Source of the DNA: Candidatus Roseilinea mizusawaensis
Lineage (GTDB): Bacteria > Chloroflexota > Anaerolineae > J036 > Brachytrichaceae
DNA length: 64,000 bases
Assembly: GCA_016841965.1 (NCBI GenBank)
Contig: JAEANN010000016.1
Span: 39,305 to 103,304, forward strand
Reading direction: 5' to 3'
Below are positions 28,709 through 34,507 of this stretch, one piece after another (the first letter of the stretch is position 1; every line of letters begins with the position of its first letter). The notes beneath the pieces were generated by a model. That model saw only the letters and a program-made list of their open reading frames with translations. It was not told where the DNA came from and did no database searches. The position numbers and the translations under genes are program-made.

Positions 28709-28750
28709 CGCCCCCGACACACTGCGCGTGTTGGGGGCGATTTTTGTTGT
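28709..28750 (+). terminator. Intrinsic terminator in the argC 5' leader (attenuator terminator)
   Basis: 12-bp stem CGCCCCCGACAC / GTGTTGGGGGCG (one G-U pair), 7-nt loop, then ATTTTTGTTGT. Ends 68 nt before the argC ATG. Confidence 0.7.
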
Positions 28751-28817
28751 CGATGTCGCATTGCGAATTGCTGCATGTCACAGACAACCCCACAAGGTAA
28801 CCAGACGGAAACACAAG

Positions 28818-29864
28818 ATGATTAAGATCGGAATCTACGGAGCGACTGGATATACCGGCGTCGAACTGGCGCGTATCCTCAGCCGGCACTCCAAGGCGAC
28901 GATCGGTTTTGCCGCGTCCGAGACCTACGCCGGCCAGCGTTTGTCCGACGCCCTGCCGTGCCCGTTCGACATCCCATTAGTGAAAACCGAAGACGCCCCG
29001 CTCGCCGATGTGGATGTGGTCTTCTCCTGTTTGCCACACGGTCCTTCGGCTGAACTGTGCCATCACGCCCTGACGCTCGGCAAGCGGGTGATCGACCTGT
29101 CGGCAGACTTCCGCCTGCGCGACCCCGCGGCCTATGCGCGCGCCTATCAGCATGCGCATCCACATCCCGATCTGCTGGCCCAGGCCGTGTATGGCTTGCC
29201 AGAGGTCTACCGCGCACTCATTCCCGATGCTGATCTGATTGCAAATCCCGGCTGTTACCCCACCAGCGTCATTCTGGGCGCGCTGCCGGTGCTGGAACTG
29301 GGTGCGCTAGAGGGGAATCTGATCATCGCCGACAGCAAATCGGGCGTCAGCGGCGCCGGGCGCAAGCCAACCCTGACCACGCACTTTGTTGAGGTCAATG
29401 AGAGCCTGGCCCCGTATAACATCGGCCGCGTACATCGCCATGTGCCAGAAATGGAGCAGGAGTTGAACGCACTGGTCAGGAATCAGCCGCCGGCTATGAG
29501 CGGTCAGATCGCGGTGTTGTTCACGCCGCATTTGCTGCCCATCTCGCGCGGCATGTTAAGCGCGCTCTACCTGCGCCTGACGCCCGAAGGCGCGCAGGCC
29601 GACTGGCACGCCATTTACACGCGCCGGTTTGATGGCGAGCCGTTTGTGCGGGTGTTGCCCAAAGGGCAAATTGCCACGATCGCGCACGCCAATCACACCA
29701 ACTATGCGGTCCTCTCGGTCGGGCCGGTGGTGGGCATCGAGCAGGGCAGCCCCACGCTGTTGGTAGTGTCGTGCATCGATAATTTGCTGAAAGGCGCGTC
29801 GGGCCAGGCGGTTCAGAATATGAATCTGATGTTTGGGTTCGACGAACGCGAAGGGTTGCTGTAA
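28818..29864 (+). CDS. argC: N-acetyl-gamma-glutamyl-phosphate reductase
   Basis: IGIYGATGYTG NAD(P) loop and catalytic Cys in NPGCYPTS. Start trimmed to MIKIGIYG (ATG 28818). Confidence 0.92.
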   Translation: MIKIGIYGATGYTGVELARILSRHSKATIGFAASETYAGQRLSDALPCPFDIPLVKTEDAPLADVDVVFSCLPHGPSAELCHHALTLGKRVIDLSADFRLRDPAAYARAYQHAHPHPDLLAQAVYGLPEVYRALIPDADLIANPGCYPTSVILGALPVLELGALEGNLIIADSKSGVSGAGRKPTLTTHFVEVNESLAPYNIGRVHRHVPEMEQELNALVRNQPPAMSGQIAVLFTPHLLPISRGMLSALYLRLTPEGAQADWHAIYTRRFDGEPFVRVLPKGQIATIAHANHTNYAVLSVGPVVGIEQGSPTLLVVSCIDNLLKGASGQAVQNMNLMFGFDEREGLL

Positions 29865-31188: not shown

Positions 31189-32628
<1,440 letters not shown>

Positions 32629-32632
32629 CGCA

Positions 32633-34507
32633 TTGGACATCGACGTTCGACCCGCCGGCCCAGATGATGTGTCGTCTATTGTGTTGCTGGTGGCTGCCAA
32701 TGCCCGCAAGGGTGGCCTGTTGCCGCGCAGCGAGACCAACATTCGCGCCACGCTCAAAAACTTTGTGGTCGCCGTGGCCTCTGGTGAGGGGCCGCTGGCA
32801 AATGACGATGGCAAGCCGGTTGTTGTTGGTTGCGGTTCGCTGGCGCCGATGAACTCCACACTGGTCGAGTTGCGTTCGCTGGCAGTAGATGAACGCGTGC
32901 GCGGGGCCGGCGTGGGCCAGCGTATCGTTTCTTCTCTGATCGACCTGGCGCGCCAGCGCAAGTTTGGCACTTTATTTGCGCTGACGCGCGCCACGCGCTT
33001 TTTCGAGAAATGCGGGTTTACTCTGGCGCCAAAGGAGTTTTTTCCAGAGAAGGTCTGGCGCGATTGTGTGGCTTGTCCCATGCTGTCCAACTGCGATGAA
33101 GTGGCGATGGTGTTGCCGCTGTCGTCGGAAGACACCGTGGCGCATCAAGGTCTGGCCGGCGCGCGCGCGCCAGACCCGGCCCGCGAGAAGACAATCCCCT
33201 TGCAGGTCGTCAGCAAGATGCGCACGGCGCAGGAGAGCGTTGCAATCAACACACACGAACTGGTCAATCGAGTTGTGCTGGCTTACAGCGGCGGCCTCGA
33301 CACAGCTTGTGCTGTGCCCTGGCTGCGCGAGACCTACGGCTGTGAAGTGATCTGCTTTGTGGCCGATGTGGGGCAGGGCGGCGATTTCGAGGCCATCAAG
33401 CAGCGCGCGATTGCATCCGGCGCAGCCGACTGCATCGTCGAAGACCTGCGCGAAGAGTTCGCCAATGAATACCTGTTTCCGCTCATTCAAAGCGGCGCAA
33501 TCTACGAAGGCAAGTATCTGCTGGGTGCAAGCATTGTGCGCCCGCTCATTGCCAAGCACCAGGTCGATTGGGCGGCCCGGCTTGGCGCCGATGCAGTCGC
33601 GCACGCAGCCACCGGCAAAGGCAACGATCAGGTGCGCTTTGAGCTAAGTTACATGGCGCTTAATCCTCGCCTGAAGGTGATTGCGCCCTGGCGTGAATGG
33701 CACATACGCGGGCGCGAAGATGCGATTGCCTATGCGCGCGCACACAATGTCCCTATTAGCCAGTCTTTAGAACGCATTTATTCCGGTGACCACAGCCTGT
33801 GGCACAAGAGCGCCGAAGGTGGCAGCCTCGAAGACCCTTGGCGTGAGCCGGATCCCGGACTGTACGGCATGACCGTCGCCCCTGAACAAGCGCCCGACGA
33901 GCCGGAATACGTGGAAATTGAGTTTGTATGCGGCTTGCCCAAGAAAGTGAACGGCAAGAGTATGGGCGGCGCCGAGCTGATCGAGACGTTAAATCAGATC
34001 GGCGCGCGGCATGGAGTAGGTCGGGTGGACTTGGTGGAGAACCGGTTGATCGGCATTAAATCCCGCGGAGTGTATGAGACGCCGGGCGGCACGATCCTGC
34101 GCGCGGCGCATCAAGGACTGGAAGAATTGACGCTCGATCGTGAGACGTTGCACTTCAAACAGATGGTCGCCCTGCGGTACGCTGAACTGATCTACAACGG
34201 CCAGTGGTTCACACCCTTGCGCGATGCGATTCAGGCATTTGTAATGGTCACACAGCGCGATGTGACCGGCACAGCCCGCGTGAAGCTATTTAAGGGCAAC
34301 GCAGTGCTGGTGGGAAGAAAGGCAGCTTACTCGCTCTATCGGGAAGATCTGGCAACTTTCCTGCGCGATGACGTGTATAACCACCATGATGCGGAGGGAT
34401 TTATTCGGCTGTACGGTTTGCCGTTGCGGGTCAAAGCGCAGGTTGATCTCAATCGCGCCGCGCGTGTGGCGCCGCTGGATATGCCGGCCGGAGAAGGGCG
34501 AGATTGA
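32633..34507 (+). CDS. argG: Fusion protein: N-terminal short NAGS-like GNAT domain (~165 aa) plus linker plus canonical (type 1) argininosuccinate synthase
   Basis: GNAT part: ELRSLAVDERVRGAGVGQRIV...FFEKCGF...PEKVWRDCVACPMLSNCDEVAM. ArgG part: [52 protein letters not shown] start 8 nt after a GGAGGG RBS. Confidence 0.85.
   Translation: MDIDVRPAGPDDVSSIVLLVAANARKGGLLPRSETNIRATLKNFVVAVASGEGPLANDDGKPVVVGCGSLAPMNSTLVELRSLAVDERVRGAGVGQRIVSSLIDLARQRKFGTLFALTRATRFFEKCGFTLAPKEFFPEKVWRDCVACPMLSNCDEVAMVLPLSSEDTVAHQGLAGARAPDPAREKTIPLQVVSKMRTAQESVAINTHELVNRVVLAYSGGLDTACAVPWLRETYGCEVICFVADVGQGGDFEAIKQRAIASGAADCIVEDLREEFANEYLFPLIQSGAIYEGKYLLGASIVRPLIAKHQVDWAARLGADAVAHAATGKGNDQVRFELSYMALNPRLKVIAPWREWHIRGREDAIAYARAHNVPISQSLERIYSGDHSLWHKSAEGGSLEDPWREPDPGLYGMTVAPEQAPDEPEYVEIEFVCGLPKKVNGKSMGGAELIETLNQIGARHGVGRVDLVENRLIGIKSRGVYETPGGTILRAAHQGLEELTLDRETLHFKQMVALRYAELIYNGQWFTPLRDAIQAFVMVTQRDVTGTARVKLFKGNAVLVGRKAAYSLYREDLATFLRDDVYNHHDAEGFIRLYGLPLRVKAQVDLNRAARVAPLDMPAGEGRD

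Follow-up and report, generated by a model that had tools for sequence, protein, structure and literature searches.

Glutamate acetylation is the least uniform step of the arginine pathway. The N-acetylglutamate synthase (NAGS) family, as reviewed in 2015, comprises classical NAGS, the bifunctional NAGS/K, the short NAGS (S-NAGS), the ArgH-fused H-NAGS, O-NAGS, C-NAGS, ArgJ, and a NAGS-ArgC fusion, with no fusion to ArgG among them (PMC4490483). In ArgH(A), or H-NAGS, of Moritella and other marine gammaproteobacteria (PMC1382215; model NF008964), a short NAGS-type GNAT domain is joined to a late enzyme of the arg operon. Short NAGS are puzzling in that the Km of the Mycobacterium tuberculosis enzyme for glutamate reaches about 600 mM, and whether such an enzyme needs a partner protein was left open (PMC4490483, PMC1382215). 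Xu et al. (2006, PMC1382215) also noted acetyltransferase genes beside argG and argH in Deinococcus and Thermus, in D. radiodurans beside argG. Here we analyze a reading frame in a 64-kb stretch of the genome of Candidatus Roseilinea mizusawaensis (64,000 nucleotides of contig JAEANN010000016.1, called the window below), in which a short-NAGS-like GNAT domain precedes a type-1 argininosuccinate synthase (ArgG). This protein would be to ArgG what the known ArgH(A) fusion is to the lyase; it is widespread in the class Anaerolineae and mislabelled in databases.

The fusion resembles ArgH(A) in joining a short NAGS-type GNAT to a late arg-operon enzyme, and the two GNAT domains are homologous: that of the window scores about 96–98 bits against the "(A)" part, positions 464–619, of PRK12308, the model of ArgH(A) (NF008964, cutoff 657 bits). 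Both systems raise the question of whether the partner replaces the kinase-like domain of classical NAGS. However, the partner in the window is argininosuccinate synthase with no lyase domain, the GNAT is N-terminal instead of C-terminal, the host belongs to Chloroflexota (Anaerolineae) rather than Gammaproteobacteria, and the window branch carries a Cys-x2-Cys-x5-Cys motif. The activity of ArgH(A) is backed by complementation, whereas that of the ArgG fusion is predicted from sequence. With S-NAGS (M. tuberculosis Rv2747, 5yge/5yo2; the arg(A)-like genes of Thermus and Deinococcus) the window domain shares its fold, its closest sequences, and its linkage to arg operons, but unlike the free-standing S-NAGS it is fused and scores below the NF005921 cutoff; Rv2747 has Lys in place of an arginine (R32) that is invariant in the fusions, and lacks the Cys triad. 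Classical NAGS (ArgA) and NAGS/K have a homologous NAT domain (2r8v, 2e-25) and share the idea of oligomerization or regulation through a second domain, while the fusion has no amino-acid-kinase domain and its partner is a catalytically unrelated enzyme of the ATP pyrophosphatase type. The fusion would work like S-NAGS or H-NAGS, yet it fails the thresholds of the S-NAGS models and, by partner and orientation, is not an ArgH(A).

Full-text literature searches found no paper describing a GNAT-ArgG fusion, a mention in the 2007 arginine review in Microbiology and Molecular Biology Reviews being still possible. The initial annotation of this DNA, made without database searches, had known of no ArgG equivalent of ArgH(A), and none was found in the literature or in the 2015 review. 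It had also asked whether the architecture might be common and already characterized; common it is, within one bacterial class, and no characterization of it was found in the literature searched. Two leads from the searches were rejected, as Cabys_1732/ArgA2 of Bacteroidota is a different NAGS isoform and an "arginine synthetase" paper mentioning Thermoflexus is unrelated. Given ArgH(A), the fusion would not astonish a specialist.

Domain composition of the fused protein

The protein is encoded by one open reading frame (ORF) with a TTG start, as given in the ORF listing of the window, and its parts are as follows.

32633..34507, + strand: whole fusion gene, 624 residues, stop codon included; full-length homologues at 53–88% identity
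32620..32625, + strand: Shine-Dalgarno-like GGAGGG, 7 nt before the TTG start, read from the sequence
32633..33127, + strand: short-NAGS-like GNAT domain, residues 1–165; profile, alignment, and fold matches
33128..33262, + strand: linker, residues 166–210; variable in length and sequence among homologues, predicted flexible
33263..34462, + strand: type-1 argininosuccinate synthase domain, residues 211–610; NF001770 and alignment to Thermus thermophilus ArgG
33284-33304, + strand: P-loop YSGGLDT, residues 218–224, in the ArgG part
33782-33823, + strand: segment SGDHSLWHKSAEGG, residues 384–397, in the ArgG part

The division into GNAT, linker, and type-1 ArgG, already proposed in the initial annotation, agrees with the ORF listing, Pfam, and NCBIfam, and all motifs quoted there are present in the 624-residue protein. 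Pfam places GNAT at residues 54–130, Arginosuc_synth at 213–374, and Arginosuc_syn_C at 383–600. An exact look-up of the protein gave no record, and its neighbours were therefore studied through homologues. In the AlphaFold2 (AF2) model, with a mean predicted local distance difference test score (pLDDT) of 81, both domains are confident, the GNAT reaching about 90 over most of its length, and residues 174–207 of the linker fall below 50. The linker alignment has zero invariant columns, and its length varies by tens of residues among homologues, always in frame. Between the window protein and three close relatives, the ratio of nonsynonymous to synonymous substitution rates (dN/dS) is 0.085–0.087 for the GNAT, 0.016–0.033 for the fused ArgG (named ArgG1), and 0.36–0.48 for the linker. 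On the codons of both domains, purifying selection is strong.

The affinity of the GNAT domain was investigated with a profile of its family against solved structures. The best match is M. tuberculosis S-NAGS (5yge, E 5e-35), followed by Neisseria gonorrhoeae NAGS (2r8v, 2e-25; ngNAGS) and the C-domain of Vibrio parahaemolyticus NAGS (3e0k, 7e-20), and the next-best GNAT of any kind stands at 8e-11. A Foldseek search with the AF2 model returned the same NAGS structures in the same order at the top of the GNAT matches. The classical NAGS models are not reached by the fusion (TIGR01890, 39.6 against 202.85 bits; NF003641, 50.1 against 344), and Pfam finds no AA_kinase domain in the protein. In the ngNAGS alignment, R32, E79, and T118 correspond to R316, E353, and S392, which serve in glutamate carboxylate binding, as general base, and as general acid, respectively (PMC4490483). 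The CoA motif R90-G-A-G93-V-G95 fits (R/Q)-x-x-G-x-(G/A). Residues R32, E79, G93, G95, and T118 never vary among 116 fusions, and in 60 free-standing relatives their conservation is 98–100%. On these profile, fold, and residue matches, the GNAT domain is assigned to the NAGS branch, in line with the initial annotation and not among unrelated GNATs. At its C-terminal end the family shows an invariant C145-x2-C148-x5-C154-x-E156 (33065-33100), in fused and free-standing forms alike, which neither the M. tuberculosis nor the N. gonorrhoeae enzyme has. The motif, a stretch of low AF2 confidence with a pLDDT of about 53–75, may serve as a metal or redox site.

The ArgG domain passes the NCBIfam equivalog models NF001770 (586.9 bits against 334) and TIGR00032 (470.8 against 268.2), and matches PF00764 and PF20979 at full length. 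Over 393 aligned residues it shares about 65% identity with T. thermophilus ArgG (phmmer E 9.5e-150), and it is superimposed by Foldseek on T. thermophilus ArgG 1kh1 with an E-value of 2.9e-45 and a target-normalized TM-score of 0.90. The citrulline- and aspartate-binding residues of the T. thermophilus enzyme, which we take from the UniProt annotation to be Y84, T116, N120, D121, R124, S173, S182, E258, and Y270, were checked for identity against the 1j1z sequence; all nine, together with the P-loop SGGLDT, are intact in the window. The initial annotation had noted a deviation at SGDHSLWHKSAEGG, which is real and smaller than implied: the citrulline-binding S173 and S182 (S384 and S393 of the fusion), D175, H180, and E184 are retained, and only N177, which lies outside the listed binding residues, is changed to S388 relative to T. 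thermophilus ArgG. In profile cut-offs, fold, and the nine binding residues, which are all the criteria that can be tested on its sequence, the fused domain reads as a complete type-1 ArgG.

Distribution and origin of the single frame

Homologues with the same architecture are numerous. A search of 5.8 billion proteins found more than 100 clusters (at 90% identity) of 590–670 residues that contain both GNAT and ArgG and are 53–88% identical to the fusion. The named organisms among them are exclusively Chloroflexota (Thermoflexales, Roseilinea, Promineofilum, "Anaerolineae"). GTDB species genomes were also scanned with a profile of the fused GNAT, yielding 253 relatives, and among the best 80 loci, which were kept, 51 have fused ORFs of 586–663 residues, in the class Anaerolineae; one of these, of 663 residues, comes from a metagenome-assembled genome (MAG) that is attributed to Thermoflexus hugenholtzii JAD2, a cultured organism. 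Among 1.84 billion library representatives at 50% identity, the whole query is covered by only one of the 150 best-scoring ones, which suggests that the fusion is one compact family, and a neighbour-joining tree groups the fused ArgG domains in a single clade. The concern that read-through or a frameshift might hide two genes is answered by the frame itself, which is uninterrupted in the more than 100 independent clusters and in 51 of the 80 GTDB loci. The GNAT-ArgG single frame is not an assembly artefact.

It could still be asked whether two separate proteins are made, the frame being an artefact of assembly or annotation, or the ArgG part being translated from an internal ATG (M197). This is very improbable. 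Indeed, there is an in-frame ATG at codon 197 of the fusion, and the close relatives P0023 and P0049 are publicly annotated as ArgG of only 420–430 residues. However, P0023 corresponds to residues 196–625 of a 625-residue, GTG-started ORF on the same contig, a mere choice of start codon; the frame stays open in more than 100 independent assemblies despite linkers that vary by tens of residues; and no obvious Shine-Dalgarno sequence precedes M197, whereas GGAGGG precedes the TTG start. An additional internal start beside the TTG would still be compatible with the sequence. Nor does an internal promoter before the ArgG part find support, as a promoter and terminator scan inside the operon gave no more hits than the shuffled expectation.

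Database records of the family are misleading. The whole GNAT is dropped via the internal ATG in the public annotation of close relatives (P0023, P0049; L007:3089-4966), because the true start of P0023 and P0049 is GTG or TTG, and the sole protein name on the fusion clusters is "argininosuccinate synthase". With such labels and occasional truncations, metabolic reconstructions of Anaerolineae will show the argA step as absent although the organisms probably have it.

Separate genes for the two parts exist in related organisms. The closest free-standing GNATs within Chloroflexota are 48–55% identical to the fused domain. The order argC-argB-GNAT-argG1(-argJ) is found in Herpetosiphon, including H. 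aurantiacus DSM 785, and in several Thermoflexus genomes, and Roseiflexus has argC-argB-GNAT. The split pairs of H. aurantiacus DSM 785 and Thermoflexus spp. resemble the fusion in gene order and in sequence (GNAT 50–53%, ArgG1 60–64% identical), but they are two polypeptides with no second argG nearby. In three Thermoflexus-like loci (L131, L136, L153), GNAT and argG1 lie in one frame and the stop codon of the GNAT is the only stop between them; in one further genome the two genes overlap by 4 nt. Since a single stop separates the genes in these three genomes, fusion by stop loss would be a very short step. The split arrangement argC-argB-GNAT-argG1 is presumably the ancestral state, and fission by stop gain may have occurred in individual lineages. 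In the origin that we propose, an Anaerolineae ancestor would have carried the S-NAGS gene immediately 5' of argG in an argC-argB-(S-NAGS)-argG-argJ operon, and the two genes were probably joined by loss of the intervening stop codon.

Beyond Chloroflexota, the nearest free-standing relatives, of about 150–190 residues, are 33–44% identical to the fused GNAT. Taken together, the free-standing forms (33–55% identity) stand beside argH, argG, argJ, or argB in at least four phyla, and arg operons contain them in Acidobacteriota, Deinococcota, Phycisphaerae, and Chloroflexota. In Acidobacteriota the gene directly follows argH in argC-argB-...-argG-argH operons, in Deinococcota it comes after argG...argH, and in some Bacillota and in Caldithrix it adjoins argJ.

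The arg operon and altered ArgG1 domains

The fusion is the last gene of an operon with the order argC, GNAT::argB, argG2, S-NAGS::argG1, which faces uvrB and is shared by relatives in Thermoflexales and Roseilinea. The other elements of the operon are given below.

28709-28739, + strand: strong terminator-like hairpin, 12-bp stem with 9 G-C pairs, then a T-rich tail
28728..29864, + strand: argC, TIGR01850 353 bits
29921..31180, + strand: GNAT::ArgB fusion, a generic GNAT N-terminal to acetylglutamate kinase
31225..32628, + strand: argG2, E. coli-type (type-2) argininosuccinate synthase, 467 residues, NF003779 821 bits against a cutoff of 657

The hairpin marks the upstream boundary of the arg operon. 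It overlaps the listed GTG start of argC, which implies a start of argC about 27–31 codons further downstream; homologues align from residue 27–32, and the real start is probably near codon 28–32 of the listed ORF. No homologue of argJ or argH was found in the 64-kb window. The fusion begins 4 nt past the TAG stop of argG2, and the overlap of GGAGGG with the 3' end of argG2 suggests translational coupling.

Two operon genes that bear on the function of the fusion, GNAT::argB and argG2, were absent from the initial annotation. GNAT::ArgB, whose true start is probably about 12–15 codons downstream of the listed TTG, has the reverse domain order of the bifunctional NAGS/K, its GNAT being N-terminal. 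The same GNAT and AA_kinase architecture is found in about 85 of the best 120 ArgB homologue clusters (390–478 residues, 45–92% identity); those with an organism name are all Chloroflexota, and their sole protein name is "acetylglutamate kinase". The ArgB-fused GNAT shows no NAGS-specific similarity, and its best PDB match is 3lod, a putative acyl-CoA N-acyltransferase. In Ca. Brachythrix (L009), two tandem GNAT copies precede ArgB. ArgG2 is 32% identical to the fused ArgG1 and 72–96% identical to its counterparts in the related Thermoflexales and Roseilinea operons. The dN/dS of argG2 is about 0.03, and in the window clade the constraint on the two argG copies is equal. Between argB and argG2, a small nucleotidyltransferase/HepT-like toxin-antitoxin pair was observed in another Ca. 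Roseilinea locus (L003:7904-8465) and in a metagenome contig (L073:7050-7609); it is absent from the window.

The state of ArgG1 varies with this gene context. Among the GTDB loci, the nine-residue core is canonical in all 15 of the scorable split argG1 genes and in 9 of 14 fusions without an adjacent argG2; where argG2 is adjacent, the citrulline/aspartate core is non-canonical in 25 of 36 fusions. The changes are clade-specific and conserved inside each clade: S8N/T13S/S173T/S182N/Y270D in fused ArgG1 of Roseilinea, Y84D/R124C/E258V/Y270Q in another clade, and S182M/E258Q/Y270V in the T. hugenholtzii type. In the altered ArgG1 domains (L003, L073, L080-L104), citrulline-binding residues are lost, while the P-loop and the aspartate-binding residues are kept. 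Their dN/dS is 0.01–0.12, and the GNAT invariants stay at 100%. Decay into pseudodomains was considered and rejected on these low ratios and on the conservation of the replacement residues within clades. Several of the altered operons have an ArgB without a GNAT, so that the ArgG-fused GNAT is the only acetyltransferase in the locus. These observations suggest that the fused ArgG has a role beyond catalysis, as scaffold, sensor, or enzyme of new specificity, which becomes visible once argG2 supplies the canonical activity.

Proposed function and its alternatives

We consider it probable, with some reserve, that the fusion is a bifunctional short-NAGS/type-1 argininosuccinate synthase. The GNAT domain would turn acetyl-CoA plus L-glutamate into N-acetylglutamate, the first committed step, and, across a flexible linker of about 45 residues, a catalytically complete ArgG would make argininosuccinate from citrulline, aspartate, and ATP, the second-to-last step. 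The joining of the first and penultimate steps of arginine synthesis in one polypeptide, as the initial annotation had it, is in this respect supported at the level of the sequence. ArgG is tetrameric in solved structures. We infer glutamate acetylation by the GNAT, the presence of both activities in one protein, and a benefit of tethering, which may lie in co-expression of the arg operon by translational coupling together with an oligomeric scaffold; by analogy, the tethered ArgG might act as the kinase-like domain of classical NAGS or the lyase of ArgH(A) does.

Several observations weigh against this assignment. With a further argG and a further GNAT in the same operon, one or the other half of the fusion could be redundant or serve a different end. 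Over the first 163 residues, PRK07757 (NF005840) scores 133–137 bits, below the cut-off of 154, and PRK07922 (NF005921, the Rv2747-type S-NAGS) 80–84 bits, below 180. The second half of the glutamate site of ngNAGS, R425 and S427, has no apparent conserved counterpart; the alignment stops short of it, residues 150 and 152 are variable, and the region is occupied by the Cys triad in this GNAT family. In ArgG1, the changes S14A, G114A, and N177S (T. thermophilus numbering) are specific to the window clade at positions otherwise invariant among the sequences compared. In addition, AF2 leaves the placement of GNAT against ArgG unconfident, with a predicted template modelling score (pTM) of 0.61; together with the low pLDDT of the linker, this gives a functional interface no support, and none is claimed.

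Some of these points would also fit a GNAT that is not a NAGS, its acceptor being a different amino acid, an analogue, or a lysine in a protein (e.g., ArgG), with the ArgB-fused GNAT as the real NAGS. Scores that reach the curated cut-off of neither short-acetyltransferase equivalog model, the apparent lack of conserved R425 and S427, and a Cys triad not seen in the two proven NAGS, those of M. tuberculosis and N. gonorrhoeae, are all compatible with it, and a GNAT directly on N-acetylglutamate kinase would be well placed to pass N-acetylglutamate to the kinase. However, the ArgB-fused GNAT is generic, without NAGS-specific similarity and with 3lod as its best solved relative, and it is missing from many fusion-bearing operons (L073, L080, L085, L094-96, L102, L104). 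Of all solved structures, three NAGS proteins or domains stand closest to the ArgG-fused GNAT, which keeps the equivalents of R316, E353, and S392; its relatives are embedded in arg operons of several phyla, and for its homologue in ArgH(A), the (A) domain, complementation of argA is reported (PMC1382215). A non-NAGS activity is rather improbable in our judgement, a little more so than the other alternative, which concerns the ArgG half.

In that alternative, ArgG2 would be the working ArgG of the cell, and the fused ArgG1 would mainly serve the NAGS domain, as a scaffold (oligomeric or allosteric) or as an enzyme whose specificity has changed. With 821 bits against a cutoff of 657, ArgG2 qualifies under its equivalog model, and it is as constrained as ArgG1. 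The altered core in 25 of 36 fusions next to argG2 (S182N and Y270D in Roseilinea, for example), set beside 15 of 15 canonical split genes, the purifying selection on altered domains with a fully invariant GNAT, and the unique S14A, G114A, and N177S of the window clade all speak for it. In contrast, the window protein keeps all nine substrate-binding residues and the P-loop, and its ArgG1 is as slowly evolving (dN/dS 0.016–0.033) as a housekeeping enzyme. Furthermore, the sampled fusions of Promineifilaceae and Ardenticatenaceae are fully canonical, with no argG2 in the 0.5–10 kb of upstream sequence covered; a fully functional ArgG is therefore compatible with being fused. With its catalytic residues intact, a non-catalytic ArgG is for the window protein a rival or an extension of the bifunctional reading rather than the reading itself, and we regard it as unlikely here. 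An extension that we put forward with equally low confidence is that ArgG is an obligate partner of the short NAGS in vivo, for oligomerization and perhaps allosteric sensing of late-pathway metabolites, and that, after the entry of argG2, it was free to lose citrulline binding and become a conserved module without catalysis or with new specificity. If so, the series from split genes through canonical fusion to fusion with argG2 and altered ArgG would be a natural experiment on how a short NAGS of very poor glutamate affinity functions.

On the bifunctional short-NAGS/ArgG reading, the class-wide fusion would be a second case of such a domain welded to a late arginine enzyme, with a partner other than ArgH, and the ArgG and ArgH fusions together support a functional link between the first and last arginine steps. 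The occurrence of split, fused, and altered-ArgG forms in related organisms, including the cultured Herpetosiphon and T. hugenholtzii, offers a tractable system, and this series together with the tandem argG genes makes the function of short NAGS directly testable.

Fusions of related GNATs to arginine enzymes were also observed elsewhere. A protein from a Ca. Binatia MAG (P0127, HXG05326.1, 598 residues) is an ArgG with a C-terminal NAGS-like GNAT, that is, in reverse order; its GNAT is 30% identical to that of the window and keeps the LLPR motif. Encoded on a single 9.6-kb contig, it could be an artefact of assembly or frameshift. Four loci taken as candidate ArgH fusions (L047, L050, L057, L061) were rejected, as the long frames upstream of their GNATs contain no ArgH. 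In a Phycisphaerae MAG (MP9P1.153; L014:4507-6489), a 661-residue frame, a true ArgH::GNAT fusion, lies in an argC...argG-argH(A)-argJ cluster and carries the ArgH(A) type beyond the marine gammaproteobacteria from which it was described. The ArgG-GNAT of Binatia and the ArgH::GNAT of Phycisphaerae are independent fusions pointing the same way.

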